Shown here in pieces: positions 4,050 to 22,251 of a stretch of DNA of 64,000 bases; the stretch's first letter is position 1; each line of letters starts with the position of its first letter. A model generated the notes under the pieces. That model was not told where the DNA came from. It worked only from the letters and a program-made list of their open reading frames with translations, and did no database searches. The stretch is from Cyanophyceae cyanobacterium (GTDB taxonomy: Bacteria; Cyanobacteriota; Cyanobacteriia; Cyanobacteriales; JBHJGN01): positions 41,856 to 105,855 of the forward strand of contig JBHJGN010000006.1 of the NCBI GenBank assembly GCA_050331735.1, given 5' to 3'. Both the position numbers and the translations under genes were made by a program.

Positions 4050-4594
4050 AGCTTAAGCTCAACTCCAGCATCGGCAAGAATCCCTAAGAATTTATCAAGC
4101 TGAGTGTAGGTTTCGACCAGGCGATCGCCCTCAACATGGACATCCTCAGTAGGGTAGTTTTCTAGCACTTCCAGCAAAGTAATATTACCGTCAGGTAGGG
4201 CAGAACTGACGAGGGCAGCCCGTAAAGACTGCTGACTAGCGCTTTGGGTGGGGGTGTGAATTACTTTACTCACCTGGTCAAGCAGCAGTTCTCCAGGAAG
4301 GGTGTTGAGTCCTCTCGATAGCGGAACAGGCTCGATTTCTATTTCCCGCGTCAGTACGCTACGAAGTTCTTCGGGTTCGGTGTTCGCCATTTTTAGGTAA
4401 GCTTCTAAAGAAGAAGACAGTTCACCCGTCTCGACAAAAGTACTTAGCTCAGGAACAGACACAGATTCTCTGATAAAACCGTACTTAAGCACAACAGACT
4501 CGGCTGCCTCTGTTGGATAAGCAGGCAGAACGGCAGCGGCGGTTAATCCAAGCCCGAGCTGGGTGAATCCGTGTCCGAGCGATTGTTTGTTCAT
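4046..4594 (-). CDS. DUF1400-type exported protein (annotated alpha/beta hydrolase family)
   Basis: Signal-like N-terminus then AAESVVLKYG...SVPELSTFVETGE...LRAALVSSA...ITLLEVLENYP. Confidence 0.8.
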   Translation of the reverse strand: MNKQSLGHGFTQLGLGLTAAAVLPAYPTEAAESVVLKYGFIRESVSVPELSTFVETGELSSSLEAYLKMANTEPEELRSVLTREIEIEPVPLSRGLNTLPGELLLDQVSKVIHTPTQSASQQSLRAALVSSALPDGNITLLEVLENYPTEDVHVEGDRLVETYTQLDKFLGILADAGVELKL

Positions 4595-14654: not shown

Positions 14655-15137
14655 TTAGAACAGGCCAAGAGTCAGCGATTTGTCGATGGGGAAAGTGGCA
14701 CCAATCCCTAACCAGATAGTTACCGCGGTACCAACTAAGAAAACCGTTGTGGCGACCGGGCGGCGGAAGGGGTTTTGGAACTTATTGACGTTTTCGATAA
14801 AGGGAACCAGCATTAGACCTAGAGGAATAGCCGCCTGAGCAGCAATTCCCAGGAGTTTGTTAGGAACAATCCGGAGAATTTGGAAGACGGGGTAGAGATA
14901 CCACTCGGGCAGAATTTCTAGAGGAGTGGCAAAGGGATCGGCTGGTTCGCCAACAACGGCTGGGTCGAGGACGGCGAGGCCAACGCACAGGGCAATCGTG
15001 CCGAGGATCACAATCGGGAACGTGTAGAGGAGATCGTTCGGCCAAGCAGGTTCGCCATAGTAGTTATGGCCCATGCCTTTGGCTAACTTAGCGCGCAATT
15101 TAGGATCGGCTAGATCCGGCTTTTTTAAGGTTGACAT
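14655..15137 (-). CDS. petD: Cytochrome b6/f complex subunit IV
   Basis: MSTLKKPDL...[16 protein letters not shown]...PEWY; real start 15137 (160 aa), not 15281. Confidence 0.98.
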
Positions 15138-15282
15138 TTTATTCTCCTGAATCTCAGAATCAGCAGGCAGTACAGTAATGTTAATCAAAATACTAGCGTT
15201 TAACGGCCACAGTTTGGTCACCTTTTCAGCAGATTTCGCCGCTGAAGATAGAAGAGGCAGGAAACGCCAGGGCGATCGCAAT

Positions 15283-15951
15283 TTACAAAGGACCAGAGAT
15301 CCCTTGCTTGCGAATCATCAGGAAGTGAAGCAGCATGAAGACGGCGATGGCCCAAGGCAGCACGAAGGTGTGCAGACTGTAGAATCGGGTCAAGGTAGCT
15401 TGTCCAACGCTAGTACCGCCTCTCATTAGCTCGACAAGCTGATCGCCAACAACAGGAATTGCCGCCGGAACGCCAGAGACGATTTTCACAGCCCAGTAGC
15501 CGATCTGGTCCCAGGGTAAGGAATAGCCCGTAACGCCGAATGTAACGGTGATGACGGCCAGGATCACTCCAGTGACCCAAGTGAGCTCACGGGGCTTTTT
15601 GAATCCACCGGTGAGGTAGACCCGAAAGGTATGCAGAATCATCATCAACACCATCATGCTCGCTGACCAACGGTGAATCGAGCGGATGAGCCAGCCGAAG
15701 TTGACCTCATTCATGATGTACTGAACCGAAGCGAATGCCTCAGTTACGGTAGGCCGATAGTAGAAAGTCATTGCAAATCCAGTGGCAAACTGGATTAAGA
15801 AGCAGGTGAGCGTAATTCCCCCCAAACAGTAAAAGATGTTGACGTGGGGCGGAACGTACTTACTGGTAATATCGTCTGCGATCGCCTCAACTTCTAGGCG
15901 CTCGTTAAACCATTTGTAGGCCGATGAGTTGGTTACTTGTTTAGAAAACAT
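15283..15951 (-). CDS. petB: Cytochrome b6
   Basis: [32 protein letters not shown]; 222 aa. Confidence 0.99.
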
Positions 15952-16330
15952 GAAGCCAGTATTTGCTGAGTAGTAAATATTATACGGATGTTTTAGATCG
16001 AAGAGGGCTGATTGAGTCGCTCGTCACTGCCTCAGTAAACCTCTGTGGTTCAAGGATTCAGAGCTGAGCCTTAATTCTCTCCATCAAATGTAACATAGCT
16101 GCTCGGCAGAATGTTAACTTTTGTTTGAGGAGATTAAGAACGCCAAGGCTAGGGAAGGTGGCCCAGAGAATTGTTACAGTTAAAGACTAGTAACGCTTTT
16201 GGCAAAATGGCTGCCCAAAGTTTTTCTCCGTTTCGTATAGAACGCTAACTTGCTACTCAACTATTCTAGTTCAGCAACAAAAGTTTAAAGCCCCTAAACT
16301 TTAAGTAATACTTAAAAAAAAGTTAACGCG

Positions 16331-17566
16331 GTGCTCATGGGCAAAAGAGTCATTGGGGTCATGCTGACCTTTGTTCTCACAATTATCTCCTGGTGGTGGT
16401 CTCCTACTGCTGCTGCTTTTACAGAGGATCAAAAGCTACTACTACAGTCTTGGCGAATTGTCAATCAAGCTTATCTCGACGAAACGTTTAACCATCAGAA
16501 TTGGTGGCTGATTCGCCAAAAGCTGCTGAAGCGCCCTCTGACCGAGCGAGAAAAGACTTACACCGCAATCGAGGAGATGCTTGCGAGCCTGAATGACCCG
16601 TTTACACGGCTACTCAGACCTGAACAATATCGGAGTTTACAGGTCAGTACTTCTGGAGAACTCTCCGGAGTGGGGCTGCAAATTAATCTCAACGAGCAAG
16701 GAGAGCTAGAAGTGGTCGCCCCGCTAGCGGGCTCTCCGGCAGAGTCAGCCGGAATCGAGCCGCGTGATCGCATCTTAGAAATTGACGGCGTAGATACCGC
16801 TAAGCTAGCTCTCGACGAAGCCGCCACCCGGATGCGGGGGCCCGTTGGCACAACGGTTTCTTTGAAAATCCAGTCAAACGCCAGCCAAGAAACACGGACC
16901 GTTAAGCTAGTCAGGGACACAATTTCTCTCAATCCCGTTTACGCGCAGCTCGACGAGCAGCCCGAAGGCGCCAGGGTAGGCTATCTTCGCCTTAATCAGT
17001 TTAGCGCCAATGCCGTCCAAGAAATTGCTCATGCGATCGCCAAGCTAGAACAACAGGGAGCCGATGCCTACATTCTCGATCTCCGTAATAATCCGGGAGG
17101 ACTGTTACAGGCAGGAATTGAGATTGCTCGCCTGTGGCTAGATAATGGCACCATTGTCTATACGGTCAATCGGCAGGGCATGTTAGGCAGCTTCGATTCC
17201 TATGGTTCGGCTTTAACCGAAGATCCGCTAATCGTGTTAGTGAATCAAGGAACCGCCAGCGCCAGCGAGATTTTGGCGGGGGCGCTTCAAGATAACGGGA
17301 GAGCTCTCCTAGTGGGAGAGACTACGTTTGGTAAGGGGTTGATTCAGTCTTTGTTCGAGCTTGCTGATGGCTCTGGGTTAGCCGTTACCGTCGCTAAGTA
17401 TGAAACACCAAGCCATAGAGATATCAACAAGGAAGGGATAGTTCCAGATCAAGTGATTTCTCAAGCCCCCATTACTCTACAGCAGGTCGGAACAGCAGTA
17501 GATCAACAGTACCAAGAAGCGCTGCGTCTGCTGAGGGCTCACTCCGTGTTAGCCGATGCAGCCTAG
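16331..17566 (+). CDS. ctpA: Carboxyl-terminal processing protease (S41, PDZ), D1-processing CtpA type
   Basis: LDLRNNPGG, TASASEI and TFGKGLIQ motifs; divergent from petB. Confidence 0.9.
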   Translation: MLMGKRVIGVMLTFVLTIISWWWSPTAAAFTEDQKLLLQSWRIVNQAYLDETFNHQNWWLIRQKLLKRPLTEREKTYTAIEEMLASLNDPFTRLLRPEQYRSLQVSTSGELSGVGLQINLNEQGELEVVAPLAGSPAESAGIEPRDRILEIDGVDTAKLALDEAATRMRGPVGTTVSLKIQSNASQETRTVKLVRDTISLNPVYAQLDEQPEGARVGYLRLNQFSANAVQEIAHAIAKLEQQGADAYILDLRNNPGGLLQAGIEIARLWLDNGTIVYTVNRQGMLGSFDSYGSALTEDPLIVLVNQGTASASEILAGALQDNGRALLVGETTFGKGLIQSLFELADGSGLAVTVAKYETPSHRDINKEGIVPDQVISQAPITLQQVGTAVDQQYQEALRLLRAHSVLADAA

Positions 17567-17576
17567 TTTCAGTGAG

Positions 17577-17620
17577 CAGTGACTAGTCATCAGCGATCCG
17601 GTAAACTAGTTTAGTCACTG
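17577..17620. terminator. Inverted repeat between convergent genes (possible bidirectional terminator)
   Basis: CAGTGACTA (17577-17585) / TAGTCACTG (17612-17620). Confidence 0.45.
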
Positions 17621-17678
17621 ACTGATAACTTTCTGAGCCTGTCAGCCTACAGTAACTAGCAACGGTGGCTGTTGTCGA

Positions 17679-18398
17679 TTAGCGTAATAGCCAGTCGTCG
17701 ATCAGGTTGAGAACTGTTGTTGGTCCTAATCCTCTGACAGATTTAACGACATCCTGGTAGTTAGCAAACGCTCGCTTCTTTCTAGCACTGATGATCCCTT
17801 GGGCTAGTTTTTCCGCACCTCGGACTTTAGAACGCTCTAACTCAACGGCTAGTTCTGCTTCGCTCAAAGTATTGAGTGCTTCTAGAGGCTTAAGGCGCTG
17901 AGGAATTAAGCTTTCGATTTCTCTCAATCGATTGTCAGTCCTGGCTCTTTCTTGAGTTTGTTCTTCTCTAACCTGATTTAGACCTTTCTCGACCCGTAAC
18001 TCCAGATTCATCAACCGCGATTCTAAAGACTGGAGACTGCCAGTGGCAGCCGCTGTATCAGTTGCTAGCGCACTGTTTCTGGCCGTAGCCGAGAGTTGCT
18101 GAAGGGTCTCTATCTGCTGAATAGCGGCTGCTTCCCTTCCTTCTGGAACGACCAACACGTTGACCATTTCTGCTTGACGAGGATTTTTCTCACTGGCTCT
18201 GACAGCAGCGTAGTATTCTAAATGACCATAAATGACTTCGTAACTTTCAAAGGCTGTTTTTTTCAAAACTAACGGTTTTAACAATCCTTCAGTTTCTAAT
18301 AATCGCTCGGCGAGCCGCTCAAGATTTGCTTCCGAAAACTGGGAGCGCGGAACGTTAGAAGTAATGCTTTCTACATCTACCTTCAAAAAGGTGGCCAT
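17679..18398 (-). CDS. ParB/Srx-like N-terminal domain + coiled coil + C-terminal helix-hairpin-helix (ComEA-like) protein
   Basis: VDVESI...PRSQFSEANLERLA...LLKPLVL...YEVIYGHLEYYAA (degenerate ParB box); C-terminal LNTLSEAEL...AQGIISARKKRAF..YQDVVKSVRGLGPTT. Confidence 0.8.
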   Translation of the reverse strand: MATFLKVDVESITSNVPRSQFSEANLERLAERLLETEGLLKPLVLKKTAFESYEVIYGHLEYYAAVRASEKNPRQAEMVNVLVVPEGREAAAIQQIETLQQLSATARNSALATDTAAATGSLQSLESRLMNLELRVEKGLNQVREEQTQERARTDNRLREIESLIPQRLKPLEALNTLSEAELAVELERSKVRGAEKLAQGIISARKKRAFANYQDVVKSVRGLGPTTVLNLIDDWLLR

Positions 18399-19777
18399 TA
18401 CTGCATCTCCATTTTGTCTAACACTTCTAGAGCCAGAGCTTCAAATTCAGCGGCAGAAACATCAGCCGTAGAGACGGCTTTAGCATACTCAAAGATAGAT
18501 TTAGGGTCGGGAACCTCTAAATCTCCGACCGAAAGAGTTTGATTGACGCAATGGGAGAGATGCATTCTTTCTGAAATCATATTTTCCATCAGGGGAAGCT
18601 GATAGCGCTCTGGAATGATGCTTCGATGTTTAGGAAAAGTATGCTGAAGATATTTGGCATGGGTGGATATTTTAGAAGGAAGCACTCCCATAATTTTGAT
18701 CGGTGGTTTTCCTAATCCTTCTTTGTTTTCGTTAATTTGTTTAGTGATAAAGTTTTTGACGCTTTCTAGTCCTTGATTAGAAAAAGGCTTAAGGTCCGAA
18801 GGAATAATTAAATAGTCAGCCGCCGTTAGCGCCACTTCTGCATACAAATCTAGAGAGGGGGGAGTGTCGATAATGACAATATCATATTGATCTTTAACTT
18901 TTTCCAATTTTTTGACGAGGCGGAATCTACTGGCTCCGTACTGAACTAGCTCATTTTGCCGCTCGATGAGAGTAATGTGGGAGGGAACCACATCAATTTC
19001 TGGCTGATTGAAGTAGTGAGACTGCCTGGAAAGTTCGGGAATAAAGTTAAAGTTGGTTCCTTCTAGCAAATGGTAAACGTTGCGCTCTCTAATATCATCC
19101 TCTTCTTCAAACTGAAATTTCACTAACCCCACAGCAAAGGTTGTGTTGGCTTGCGCATCGATATCAATGAGCAATACCCTTTTGCCCTTTTTTCTCAAAG
19201 CTGCTGCTAGGTTAATCGCAACAGTGGTTTTACCGACGCCACCTTTATGGTGGTAAATGGCAATTGTTTTCATAGTTGGTTGACGATTAAGGTTAAGTTG
19301 AGATGCAGCGGCACTCAGATAAGTGGAAAACTGACCAGCGTCAGAGACAGTTTGATTAAGGTTATTTTTACCGATTAACGCGTTGATACCCTCTAAATTC
19401 TGCTCGATTTGCTGACCAAGACATTGAAAAACTAACTGAATCGCGTCTTGGTCCCTCTGATAAATTCTAATTTCTCGTCCATTTGTCAACAGTCCATAGG
19501 GCGCCCTTAATCGGGTTAGATAAATTCTGAGCTTGCGCTCGTGACGCTCTAGATTTTCTTGGGGATGTTTGGCTTCTAGGACGACAAACGGCAATTGTGT
19601 TGACGGAGACGGCATCACCCGGTTAGCGAAAGCGAGAAAATCTAGACGGATATTGCCAAAGGCTACTTCTTGATGCCAGGTATCAGGAGAGTAGCCGAGC
19701 TTAGGCAGCAAATACTGAACAATGAGTTTACTTTCAACTTCGCTTTCGTTGCGACAAAGAGAGGGATCGAAGCTCAA
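18398..19777 (-). CDS. HsdR_N-type PD-(D/E)XK nuclease domain fused to ParA/Soj ATPase
   Basis: N-terminal ESEVE..LIVQYLLPKLGY, QEV, RLDF, LEAK, YGLLTNG; C-terminal KGGVGKTT, DIDAQAN, DTPP. Confidence 0.9.
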   Translation of the reverse strand: MSFDPSLCRNESEVESKLIVQYLLPKLGYSPDTWHQEVAFGNIRLDFLAFANRVMPSPSTQLPFVVLEAKHPQENLERHERKLRIYLTRLRAPYGLLTNGREIRIYQRDQDAIQLVFQCLGQQIEQNLEGINALIGKNNLNQTVSDAGQFSTYLSAAASQLNLNRQPTMKTIAIYHHKGGVGKTTVAINLAAALRKKGKRVLLIDIDAQANTTFAVGLVKFQFEEEDDIRERNVYHLLEGTNFNFIPELSRQSHYFNQPEIDVVPSHITLIERQNELVQYGASRFRLVKKLEKVKDQYDIVIIDTPPSLDLYAEVALTAADYLIIPSDLKPFSNQGLESVKNFITKQINENKEGLGKPPIKIMGVLPSKISTHAKYLQHTFPKHRSIIPERYQLPLMENMISERMHLSHCVNQTLSVGDLEVPDPKSIFEYAKAVSTADVSAAEFEALALEVLDKMEMQ

Positions 19778-20074
19778 CTTTTTAGGGTAGCGTTTAAGTC
19801 AGGGGATTGTAGACTTGATTGTCTCGGAAAAGTAAGCCTCTACACAATAGTTAAGACTACGTAATTATCGGCTTCAGGTTTACTTTCTGGAACTTCTTAG
19901 CAAAAAGTAAAATATATTACAATCGTGAAATTACGTAAAAAGTGGCGAACAGACCTTCTCGTGGTCTGTGGAGAAGGGAGAGCATCCACTTCGTCCTTGG
20001 TTATTAGTCCTTTGTCCGAATGGCTAAGGAGGTGACATCCTCCGAATATGCCCTGTGGGGCTCAGTTAATGCTG

Positions 20075-22251
20075 TTAAGCTACGGTGGTAGTGCTAACCG
20101 GGAAGAACGATAAAGTATCAAGGCGGTCAGGGCTCACTCCCTGAACAATTGCTAGCGTCTCGTCTTCAAAGTTGATCAAGGCATCGTTGGTTCCGTTAAT
20201 GGATAGATCTCTAAAGCGGAGATTATCTAAGGCGATGAAGTCGGTGCCGACTTCAAAGTCAACAATGGTATCTGTTCCTTCGCTAGCACCGAGGACAAAA
20301 ACATCTCGACCTTCCCCTCCAGAGAAATCATCCCCTTGAAGCGTGTTGTTACCCGGTCCACCCCCTAGCACATCATCCCCATACAACTGGTCGTCGTCTA
20401 AACCGCCCAGAAGCAAGTCGTTGCCGCCCTTACCGCCGAGGCGATCGCTGCCTGCCCCGCCGACCAGAGTATCGTTGCCGCCTTCTGTTCCCCCTGGAGA
20501 GCGGCTGTTAAGGTCTCCACGCAGCACGTCATCGCCGTTGCCGCCAAAAATTTCATCATCGCCTGCTAAACCCGCGATGGTATCGCTCCCGCTACCGCCA
20601 GAAATGAGGTCAATGTTGTCGCGATCGAGGAGGGTATTGCTCTCTTCAGTGCCGATAAGACCTGTAGAAGGCGCAGGACCAAAAATAACATAGCTCTCGC
20701 CGCGGCGATCGTTATAGTCGAAGTCGTAGCCAACAATTAGATTCCCTGCACCAGGAGCGCCGATAATAAAGTCGTCAAAGCCGTCGCCATTAACGTCTCC
20801 TGCTTCGCTGACCGAGCTGCCTAAAAGATCCAAGGGATCAATGCCGCTGAGAGTAAAGCCATTAGTGCCATCTAGTTCAGCAAGATCTAAGCTCGCATCA
20901 AACCCGCTTCTGCCAAACACTACGTAGGTCTCGCCTCGGCCATTACTATAAATGCCAAAATCACTATAAACTAGCTCTCCTGCACTAGGAGCACCGATAA
21001 TGAGGTCATCAAAGCCATCACCATTAACGTCTCCCGATCCGCTCACCGACCTGCCGGAATAGTCTTCGGCGTCAACTCCTCTAAGGACAAAACCATTGGT
21101 TCCATCTAGCTCAGCTAAATCCAAGTTTGCGTCGAACCCATTACTGCTACCGAACACGACATAGCTCTCGCCGGCTTCATAATTCCCGTTAGGATCAGCC
21201 TCATCAGCCCCAATAATTATGTCGTCAATCCCATCACTGTTTATGTCTCCAGCTTCGCTCACCGACCTGCCGGAATAGTCTCCGGCATCAATTCCTCTAA
21301 GGACAAAGCCATTAGTACCATGTACTAATCTAGCCAGATTTTGACTAACGCCGCTTGGGAAGCTAGGAAGCGGAGGAGGAGAACTACCTAGCGTAATTTC
21401 AATCTCATAGTCGCCAGTGCTGGCAAAAAAATCAACTTCACCGCTTCCCTCTACCAAAGGATTGTATTCGGAATTAGTAACGTCGCTGACACCAATGAAG
21501 TAAGTGTCAGAGGTAGAAGTGGTAAAGTCAATTAGAGATTCAGAACTACTGCTGCTAACACTGCTAACTTCTACTCTCTCTCCGTTTGAGTCAAAAAGCC
21601 CCAGGATTGCCTCTAGCACAAAGTCTTCTCTATCTACATGAGCAACCAGGCGATCGCCCGCGTCAAGCTGCACCTCGAACAGATCGACATCCGCCCCTGG
21701 AGTAACGTTGAAATTATCACCAATAGCACCAGAGAAGCTAAACGTGCTCAGGTTTTCAGCGCTTAACCCCGTTGGCGTTGCGGTCGCAATGGTATCGTTC
21801 GGTTCATATGTAGGGGACTCTCAAGGGTAATTTCAAGCGAATACTCGCCAGTACTACCAAAGTCTCCACTTCCTTCTGTGAAAGGATCGTAGGAAAAATT
21901 ACTATAGCCGCTGACTCCAATAAAGTAAGTATCAGAGACAACAGCGGTAAAGTTTATTAAAGAGTCTAAACTGCCAAAATCATCATCATTAACCGCAACT
22001 TCATTTCCGTTGGCAGCAAACAGACGCAAAATTGAATCTAGCGAGGAGCCGACGATATCAGCTTCAATGTCGATCGTGAGGCGATCGCCCACATCAAGCT
22101 GTACCTTAAACAGATCGACATCCGATTGAGGAGCTATATCTGGGTTATCACCAATCTCCCCAGAAAAACTCAGCCGCCCCAAATTATTAGCGCTTAAGCC
22201 TGTCGGGGTTGCGGTTGCTAGCGTATCGTTTCGTTCAGAAAAAGTTACCAT
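20075..22251 (-). pseudogene. Frameshifted secreted/surface protein: two PPC domains + FG-GAP (integrin-like) repeats + RTX Ca-binding repeats
   Basis: ORFs 21763-22251 and 20075-21673 join if one C is added to the C4 run (plus-strand GGGG 21813-21816), giving ...ITLESPPTYEPNDTIATATPTGLS...; GDVNGDGFDD and GGxGxD repeats. Confidence 0.82.

Follow-up and report, generated by a model that had tools for sequence, protein, structure and literature searches.

A ParA ATPase with a nuclease head and a ParB-like partner in a cyanobacterium: a member of the predicted effector-ParAB class with a possible role in phage or plasmid conflict

ParA and ParB are textbook segregation proteins, and homologues of the two genes considered here go by database names such as 'AAA family ATPase', 'ParA family protein' and 'chromosome partitioning protein ParA/ParB'. 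The gene pair resides at positions 17679-19777 of a 64,000-nucleotide stretch (the window) of contig JBHJGN010000006.1 from Cyanophyceae cyanobacterium assembly GCA_050331735.1, where the list of open reading frame (ORF) translations places both genes co-directionally on the minus strand, gene 1 followed by gene 2. Gene 1 fuses a nuclease-type head to a ParA ATPase, gene 2 encodes a degenerate ParB-like protein, and the question arises what purpose such a combination serves. In our reading, to which we assign a probability of roughly 0.55, the pair is a chromosomal effector-ParAB module that descends from ParAB and has been turned to use in conflict with phages or plasmids. We consider such a role more probable than a housekeeping one, and the 'partitioning' names in the databases are probably wrong.

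An earlier note on this DNA, made from the sequence alone, had described a PD-(D/E)XK-ParA fusion with a KGGVGKTT motif and a translationally coupled second gene with a ParB/Srx-like N-terminus reading GHLEYYAA, a coiled coil and a ComEA-like helix-hairpin-helix (HhH), and had seen neither a parS palindrome nor a HIP1 site nor a methyltransferase. All of this stands in the analysis reported here, as does the conclusion that the pair is not a canonical partition system. The note had gone on to propose an anti-plasmid/anti-phage or toxin-antitoxin-like nuclease; the comparative evidence leans to conflict, and nothing specific emerged in favour of the toxin-antitoxin variant. The features of the pair are the following:

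18398..19777, minus strand: gene 1, encoding nuclease head, variable linker and ParA ATPase (459 residues, TTG start, stop codon 18398-18400)
19358..19777, minus strand: PD-(D/E)XK head of the HsdR-N/type IIG type, residues 1-140 (Pfam, invariant residues, AlphaFold2, Foldseek)
19640-19642 (D46) and 19568-19576 (E68-A-K70), minus strand: candidate catalytic residues of the head (alignment)
19274..19357, minus strand: variable linker, residues 141-168 (low identity, length varying in the alignment)
18401..19273, minus strand: ParA/MinD-type ATPase, residues 169-459 (AAA_31 match, invariant motifs)
18396..18400, minus strand: TAATG, in which the stop of gene 1 and the start of gene 2 overlap by one base (read from the sequence)
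17679..18398, minus strand: gene 2, encoding a ParB_N-like domain, coiled coil and HhH (239 residues, ATG start, stop codon 17679-17681)
18144..18398, minus strand: ParB/Srx-fold N-terminal domain, residues 1-85 (Pfam, Foldseek, profile alignment)
17907..18134, minus strand: helical/coiled-coil middle, residues 89-164 (AlphaFold2 helices, motif R128-L-x-N131-L-E133-x-R135)
17682..17888, minus strand: ComEA-like HhH, residues 171-239, ending in a conserved D234-x-W236 (structure, sub-threshold Pfam matches)

The head of gene 1 is recognized by Pfam as HSDR_N (PF04313; 30.3 bits, cut-off 25.1), while HSDR_N_2 remains just below its cut-off (23.9 bits against 25) and neither a helicase nor a methylase domain was found by Pfam on this gene. 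The nuclease motifs QEV (residues 36-38), RLDF (44-47) and LEAK (67-70) can be read from the translation. In an alignment of 33 orthologous heads N10, E11, E13, K17, D46, E68, K70 and T98 are invariant and the catalytic signature, with D46, E68 and K70, is intact as far as an alignment can tell. The AlphaFold2 model of the head (predicted local distance difference test, pLDDT, 86; predicted template modelling score, pTM, 0.82) exhibits an alpha-beta-beta-beta-alpha-beta core. Searching the PDB by sequence with the head profile yielded a designed repeat protein and noise only and was uninformative, such that a structural search was needed. The closest solved structures identified by Foldseek are an HsdR fragment (3h1t), DrdV (7lvv) and BpuSI (3s1s), with weak E-values (3e-3 to 6e-3), probabilities of 0.95-1.0 and TMq values of 0.43-0.55. 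Gene 1 thus resembles type I HsdR and type IIG/ISP restriction enzymes in its Pfam families and best structural matches, and sequence relatives of its head are fused to N6 methylases. It differs from them in its motor, which is a ParA ATP switch and not a superfamily 2 translocase or a methylase. No methyltransferase was noticed among the ORFs flanking the pair in the window, judged by eye on their translations and scanned against PADLOC rather than Pfam. As no modification enzyme was seen for the pair, self/non-self discrimination would have to differ from that of restriction enzymes.

The ParA body matches Pfam AAA_31/ParA over residues 169-350 (E 2.3e-55). The deviant Walker A sequence KGGVGKTT occupies residues 178-185 (nucleotides 19223-19246) and is followed by DIDAQ at residues 205-209. 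K178-T185 including the signature lysine K178, as well as D205, D207 and Q209, are invariant in 22 aligned ParA sequences, and the body retains all motifs of an ATP-dependent dimer. A structure prediction for a complex between the products of gene 1 and gene 2 scored 0.15 (mark 0.32), which is neutral on binding.

Gene 2 is matched by ParB_N (PF02195) over residues 7-69 with 30.7 bits (cut-off 26.3) and is not matched by the TIGR00180 profile. Its AlphaFold2 model (mean pLDDT 84.4) is aligned by Foldseek with Noc and with ParB-CDP over about 100 residues (E 6.5e-6). Residues 58-65, GHLEYYAA (nucleotides 18204-18227), are located where canonical ParB has GERRxRAA. In a profile-to-PDB alignment the G-h-l-E-y-Y-a-A of the gene 2 family lies opposite GERRYRAA of Spo0J, indicating that the family has lost the arginines that bind cytidine triphosphate (CTP). 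The consensus over 83 homologues, GHFEYYAAVRA, also lacks the CTP arginines, and G58, E61, A65, A68 and E70 are invariant among these sequences. The middle part is modelled as two helices (89-112 and 122-164) with a low-confidence gap at 114-120, and within its motif E133 and R135 are invariant and R128 and N131 conserved in at least 90% of the 83 sequences. In the model, the tail of 75 residues at the C-terminus aligns structurally with ComEA/HHH_3 clusters at template modelling (TM) scores of 0.72-0.75. The corresponding Pfam matches are sub-threshold throughout: HHH_3 reaches 15.8 bits against 27 in gene 2, and among the 83 family members HHH_6 was detected in 19 and HHH_3 in 16 at E<=0.1, with DUF655 also seen. 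A helix-turn-helix (HTH) family was not found in gene 2 by Pfam. In essence, gene 2 combines a retained ParB fold that no longer has the CTP arginines with a tail predicted to bind DNA non-specifically via HhH.

A sequence search returned 236 homologues of gene 2 at E<=1e-3. Some homologues are 70-85 residues longer, i.e. those in loci L041 (309 residues), L043 (308), L042 (324) and L068 (317). In L041, L043 and L068 the extra length stems from insertions in the linker or coiled coil, with ParB_N and HhH tail retained, and the L042 protein also features a C-terminal extension of about 70 residues beyond the tail. Between two Nostoc-type genomes with a long gene 2 and genomes with a short one, ParA hardly differs. 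Homologues occur in many cyanobacteria, with 60-71% identity for full-length gene 1 and 40-63% for gene 2, so that the features described are far beyond chance.

The earlier note knew of no characterized system with this architecture, a statement overtaken by the prediction of effector-ParAB systems in silico (Li, Burroughs & Aravind, bioRxiv 10.64898/2026.10.19.760177, October 2026). As defined in section 15 of that preprint, they consist of an operonic ParA-ParB pair in which ParB is predicted to be enzymatically inactive while keeping polar residues near the former active site. A variable effector, most commonly a restriction endonuclease (REase), is situated immediately N-terminal to ParA, and the C-terminus of ParB carries a variable DNA-binding module, e.g. 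HhH or Rho-N HeH, instead of an HTH. The preprint describes the systems as over-represented in multicellular taxa such as cyanobacteria. Their immune role is a computational prediction by its authors, who also raise interference with the ParA/ParB of the invaders themselves (10.64898/2026.10.19.760177). Our locus features an operonic ParA-ParB pair, an N-terminal REase-type effector, a degenerate ParB and an HhH tail, and the effector position varies among homologous systems. All features listed in section 15 are matched and no architectural difference to them is apparent. The architecture has therefore already been defined computationally and the locus is a member of this class. The authors place the effector-ParAB ParA in the ConB1 clade of their tree and the glutamine of DxDxQ marks the broader PriB1 branch (10.64898/2026.10.19.760177); gene 1 has both the Walker A valine and DxDxQ, but neither discriminates ConB1 membership. 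Compared with the preprint parts considered here, three aspects are new: core-like retention in some genera, vertical descent of the head as opposed to swapped ParA/ParB_N, and ParB_N look-alikes in phages.

Variability of the effector position is evident from genomes that match gene 2 but lack a strong match to the head. Four loci (L061, L062, L064 and L067) contain a homologous ParA/ParB-like pair with a ParA of 285-305 residues and no head. In L066 a gene for a PhoD-like phosphoesterase overlaps the ParA gene by four bases. L065 encodes a superfamily 1 (SF1) helicase (AAA_11/AAA_12) fused to ParA, and in L063 an SF1 helicase-ParA module is split over two genes, the upstream one with weak, sub-threshold REase-like matches. 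A second, tandem effector-ParAB-like unit is present upstream of the helicase-type one in the same locus (L063:10983-13885, genome G183). It comprises a DUF2779 protein, a frameshifted HSDR_N_2-ParA (276 and 219 residues) and a 219-residue protein with a Rho_N (HeH) tail, and the two adjacent systems look island-like.

The relatives of the head point in a similar direction. A search with the head profile against 1.84 billion representatives retrieved 422 proteins at E<=1e-3, 37 of them at E<=1e-30. Among 30 proteins hand-picked from the longer ones of 150 listed and scanned for domains, 14 are ParA fusions (one a triple fusion RloB-head-ParA), four are type IIG methylase-nucleases, three are NACHT NTPases, eight consist of the head alone and one combines RloB with PD-(D/E)XK without ParA. 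Its occurrence on type IIG and NACHT proteins identifies the head as a module of bona fide restriction enzymes and immune-type NTPases.

Comparison of 40 orthologous pairs (the window and 39 loci, with seven Nostoc-type heads at locus edges represented by 78 residues only) uncovered two different histories within one polypeptide. Mean pairwise identity, over up to 780 pairs, is 66% for the head, 62% for ParA, 52% for ParB_N, 34% for HhH and 28% for the middle of gene 2; the linker reaches 20% (672 comparable pairs). Identity of ParA correlates closely with that of ParB_N (Spearman 0.79) and far less with that of the head (0.34). The ParA tree falls into two clades of 20 rows each, types A and B, with a support of 99.7, and families f3, f6 and f7 as well as genus g22 are represented in both. 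A near-identical split is seen in the ParB_N tree (3 and 2 label changes versus about 15.7 in shuffles, with none of 500 shuffles as low). The head tree gets by with 10 changes of family label, the lowest number possible, and unites f6 (support 93), but takes 9 changes of the A/B label. The conflict is confirmed by approximately unbiased (AU) tests, for which groups A and B were taken from the ParA partition and put to the test on that of the head: a type-A clade is rejected by the head data (p 1.6e-5), and an f6 clade by the ParA data (p 3.3e-12). Columns diagnostic of type are confined to ParA in gene 1 (18 of 18, residues 174-432) and to ParB_N in gene 2 (4 of 4, residues 43-79). From these trees we infer that the head has been inherited vertically while the ParA/ParB_N unit was exchanged across families by recombination in or near the linker. 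A vertical head combined with exchanged ParA/ParB_N types would fit diversifying or balancing selection on the ParA/ParB_N contact.

A further line of evidence leads to phages. When the PDB is searched with the gene 2 profile, the top match is, instead of a cellular ParB, chain B of 9K3A (E 2.7e-6, residues 1343-1406), the pre-ejectosome of Anabaena podophage A-4L (PMC12002296). Anabaena sp. PCC 7120 is the host of this phage. We take the 1717-residue chain to be the ejection protein gp27, since a cysteine of gp27 is numbered Cys1715 in the paper and ORF27L of the phage is annotated as a tail-protein gene of 5154 nucleotides. Gp27 contacts the first turn of the packaged DNA, and ParB is not mentioned in the main text of the paper (PMC12002296). 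Aligned with hhalign, the 83-sequence gene 2 family matches the gp27 region with a probability of 96.3% (E 2e-9, 82 columns, gene 2 residues 6-90). The match is significant only via the family profile: in a tblastn search with gene 2 at E<=10, A-4L was the sole phage genome matched among 50,697 records, with E 4, and Pfam found no family on gp27. Phage polyvalent proteins, which are packaged in virions, also contain ParB-like domains, and the DdrB-like ones keep the active-site arginine and have been read as NTP-regulated DNases (PMC5512222). As described there, they share with gp27 a ParB/Srx-type domain in a large protein that is co-injected with DNA; the gp27 segment differs in that it is best matched by the arginine-less gene 2 profile and missed by Pfam ParB_N.

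The second phage link is an 89.7-kb IMG/VR viral contig (L152) encoding a stand-alone ParB_N protein of 100 residues, which is 48% identical to gene 2 over residues 1-96 and keeps DGHFEYYA. The gene lies between those for a phage-type sliding clamp (phrog_947) and a tail-assembly protein (phrog_778), with one unassigned ORF separating it from the gene for a Lar-like zinc-ribbon protein. In the ParB_N tree the phage protein nests within type A, the type of the window, and its nearest row has 55% identity. Looking for more copies of the 100-residue protein among viral sequences brought up the same contig only, and the head is nearly absent from viral contigs (one match with 32% identity). As a lead, a copy reduced to ParB_N resembles what a decoy would be, presuming that this domain contacts ParA. 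The same contig contains a near-identical element of about 70 bases at L152:3850-3925 and 4368-4440, in which a TTGACA and a TATA-like box can be read by eye. It precedes the ParB_N gene and the next small gene and looks like a repeated strong early-type promoter.

It is the variable effector, the sharing of the head with type IIG and NACHT proteins, the ParA/ParB_N swaps and the phage look-alikes that make us lean towards conflict. Moreover, gene 2 is broken in at least two genomes (G059 and G359), indicating dispensability, which we count for the same side.

The distribution of the pair was recorded in 401 Cyanobacteriota genomes from 152 genera, the window's own genome and 400 others. A head query of 165 residues matches 88 genomes and sets apart, besides the window's own, a sharp top group of 67 (E<=1.5e-37, 46-68% identity, one copy per genome), the next match following at E 2.4e-16. 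The gene 2 query has matches in 79 genomes of the sample. Gene 2 is found directly downstream on the same strand in 66 of the 67 strong-head genomes, the exception being located at a contig end. The head is present in 44 of the 152 genera and was found in none of the 33 genomes of family f26. The contigs of the 23 orthologous loci that we fetched measure between 0.15 and 7.75 Mb, and 13 exceed 3 Mb. A pattern and tblastn scan with one genome per species collected 525 relatives, and the best 80 of these are titled cyanobacteria, bar one titled 'uncultured bacterium'.

Several of our observations weigh against a conflict module. The pair is chromosomal and single-copy with a head that tracks taxonomy, and head and ParA are unusually conserved for defence genes. 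In four genera it was retained, core-like, in 19 of 19, 6 of 6, 5 of 5 and 7 of 8 sampled genomes; retention of this kind and housekeeping neighbours are unlike most defence systems. A check of homologue neighbourhoods, which the earlier note had suggested along with a PADLOC comparison, revealed mostly housekeeping genes, among them IleRS, glycosyltransferases, purD and a desaturase. A defence-island context was considered and is unsupported, with PADLOC matches at E<=1e-10 for 6 of 144 flanking ORFs and for none of the six in the window. No system model of PADLOC-DB v2 was matched in full length: gene 1 matches only 44-53 residues around the Walker A of PDC-M28B and gene 2 nothing. With tblastn at E<=1e-3, gene 2 has no match in 72,556 plasmids or in the 50,697 phage records, and the head matches in these plasmid and phage collections are HsdR-N/type IIG heads only. 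ParA and ParB_N are adjacent, so that the agreement of their trees is expected from linkage alone and does not prove interaction. Only a single viral contig and a single phage underlie the phage links, which serve as a lead, and the nesting of the viral copy in type A has a support of only 81-84. Finally, the class is known from one purely computational preprint. A literature search found nothing experimental on effector-ParAB, and the term in one paper only.

Much of this would suit a housekeeping role in the nucleoid of large cyanobacteria, which are often filamentous and polyploid: the pair would organize, segregate or process chromosome copies, and the nuclease would act in repair, decatenation-like processing or regulated DNA turnover. 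A long-resident, single-copy chromosomal locus with conserved head and ParA, a head tree following families, complete retention in several genera and neighbours of the housekeeping type speak for this explanation. Furthermore, an orthologous ParA-like gene of 294 codons lies beside the pair in eight fetched loci, and the genome of the window, 99.98% complete, lacks a TIGR00180 ParB, leaving gene 2 as its only above-threshold ParB_N. Still, we consider the housekeeping explanation unlikely. Only 67 of the 400 other genomes and 44 of 152 genera contain the head, and large clades such as f26 appear devoid of it. The same chassis occurs with variable effectors or none, ParA/ParB_N cassettes move between families, broken copies exist and look-alikes of ParB_N occur in phages. 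We also considered whether the pair substitutes for a missing canonical ParB and rejected this idea, as no complementarity was found: TIGR00180 has matches in 170 of 401 genomes, many carriers of the pair included, mostly on small contigs. The only other ParB_N-like match in the window's genome is an 89-residue open frame on another contig (L002; G000 contig C29:104963-105184), which stays below the cut-off with 25.3 bits.

Another explanation, which we rate as improbable, is an anti-plasmid, incompatibility-type or addictive module: either the pair engages the partition machinery of incoming replicons or of rival copies and the nuclease destroys them, or the nuclease is a toxin neutralized by its ParB-like partner. 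The two exchangeable ParA/ParB_N types are reminiscent of incompatibility groups of partition systems, many plasmid-type ParB genes reside on small contigs of cyanobacterial genomes, and translational coupling together with a TTG start of the nuclease gene would fit tight stoichiometric control. Interference with the ParA/ParB of invaders is also raised in the preprint (10.64898/2026.10.19.760177). However, no evidence for toxicity is at hand, searches of the plasmid and phage collections did not turn up the pair, vertical descent of the head is at odds with a selfish mobile addiction module, and the phage links favour conflict with phages over conflict with plasmids.

An ordinary, merely divergent chromosomal ParABS such as Soj/Spo0J or type I plasmid partition, as suggested by the database names and by the deviant-Walker-A ParA, the ParB/Srx fold, the gene order and the tight coupling, is hardly credible in view of the change from GERR to GHLE with loss of the CTP-binding arginines, the HhH tail where no HTH was found, a parS palindrome missing near the operon, the intact-looking nuclease fused to ParA, the patchy distribution and the failure of TIGR00180 to match gene 2.

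If the pair is an effector-ParAB module acting in conflict, gene 2 would dimerize via its coiled coil, sit on DNA via HhH and contact the ParA body with its ParB_N domain. ATP-driven dimerization of ParA on DNA would then pair two nuclease heads and lead to cleavage. The ParB-like protein may set the place and time of cutting, either by restraining the enzyme on self DNA or by recruiting it to incoming DNA. Diversifying pressure would bear on the contact between ParA and ParB_N, which comes in two interchangeable types while the head is passed on vertically, and the phage look-alikes of ParB_N could act as decoys or triggers. Who binds whom, activation by ATP, the nature of the target DNA and immunity itself are all inferred.

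We tentatively go one step further, to a proposal that seems rather doubtful at present, namely that the contact between ParB_N and ParA is an arms-race interface, at which phage mimics neutralize the system or are sensed by it and hosts swap ParA/ParB_N cassettes while keeping the head. It is equally speculative, with the odds clearly against it, that the 100-residue copy was captured from a type-A host system and that the other mimic is built into the ejected gp27 of A-4L.

The junction of the two genes is similarly tight in other loci: in L041, L045, L046, L050, L051, L053 and L069 they overlap by one or four bases or are separated by a gap of at most two bases. The TTG start of gene 1 lies at 19775-19777, and in most orthologues (L012-L070) the aligned first codon reads as L or V instead of M, which suggests that a weak start codon of the nuclease gene is conserved. 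One additional feature is located upstream of gene 1:

19911..19939, minus strand: weak sigma-70-like promoter match (9 of 12 consensus matches)

With two sigma-70-like sites in the region versus 3.2 expected from shuffles, the promoter match is no evidence of function, and neither promoter nor terminator scans gave site counts above those in shuffled sequence. Inverted repeats of at least 12 bases with arms within 60 bases were not found in 17400-20200, the search being limited to the surroundings of the operon. HIP1 sites are lacking in 17041-20440, a gap that ranks only fifth in size among 46 in the window and is hence unremarkable. In the window as a whole HIP1 (GCGATCGC) is present in 47 copies versus 0.86 expected from shuffles and is denser in the first half. 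Recent horizontal import, considered on the basis of composition, is unsupported: the GC content is 43.8% in the pair compared to 47.4% in the window, and values as low as that of the pair occur in 14% of 2.1-kb windows.

Synteny around the pair is restricted to genera or families. In the window the flanking regions (14655-17566 and 20075-22251) contain, on one side, what we take to be cytochrome b6-f petB/petD-like genes and a gene resembling those for C-terminal processing proteases, and, on the other, genes for two proteins presumably featuring FG-GAP-like and calcium-binding GGxGxD repeats. In eight loci of family f6 (one gene each in L044, L046, L047, L049-L052 and L070, Pfam-scanned in one of them) a gene for a ParA-like protein of 294-298 residues with the Walker A sequence MKGGVGKTT adjoins the nuclease-ParA gene, mostly in divergent orientation. 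L060 from family f2 has two similar ParA-like genes, of 300 and 318 codons. The window's genome contains the orthologue on a separate contig (L004:1492-2388, G000 C11), with 60% identity and without a ParB-like neighbour.

A nuclease paired with a ParB that no longer binds CTP would show that a switch for positioning has been turned into a weapon of DNA surveillance, or else into a device by which polyploid cyanobacteria maintain their chromosomes. Through the phage look-alikes and the cassette exchange the predicted immunity becomes directly testable against a housekeeping function, and with A-4L and Anabaena a host-phage pair is available for which genetic tools already exist. If the arms-race interface is real, immunity based on a ParA/ParB switch would have its first worked example here, together with a phage counter-measure.

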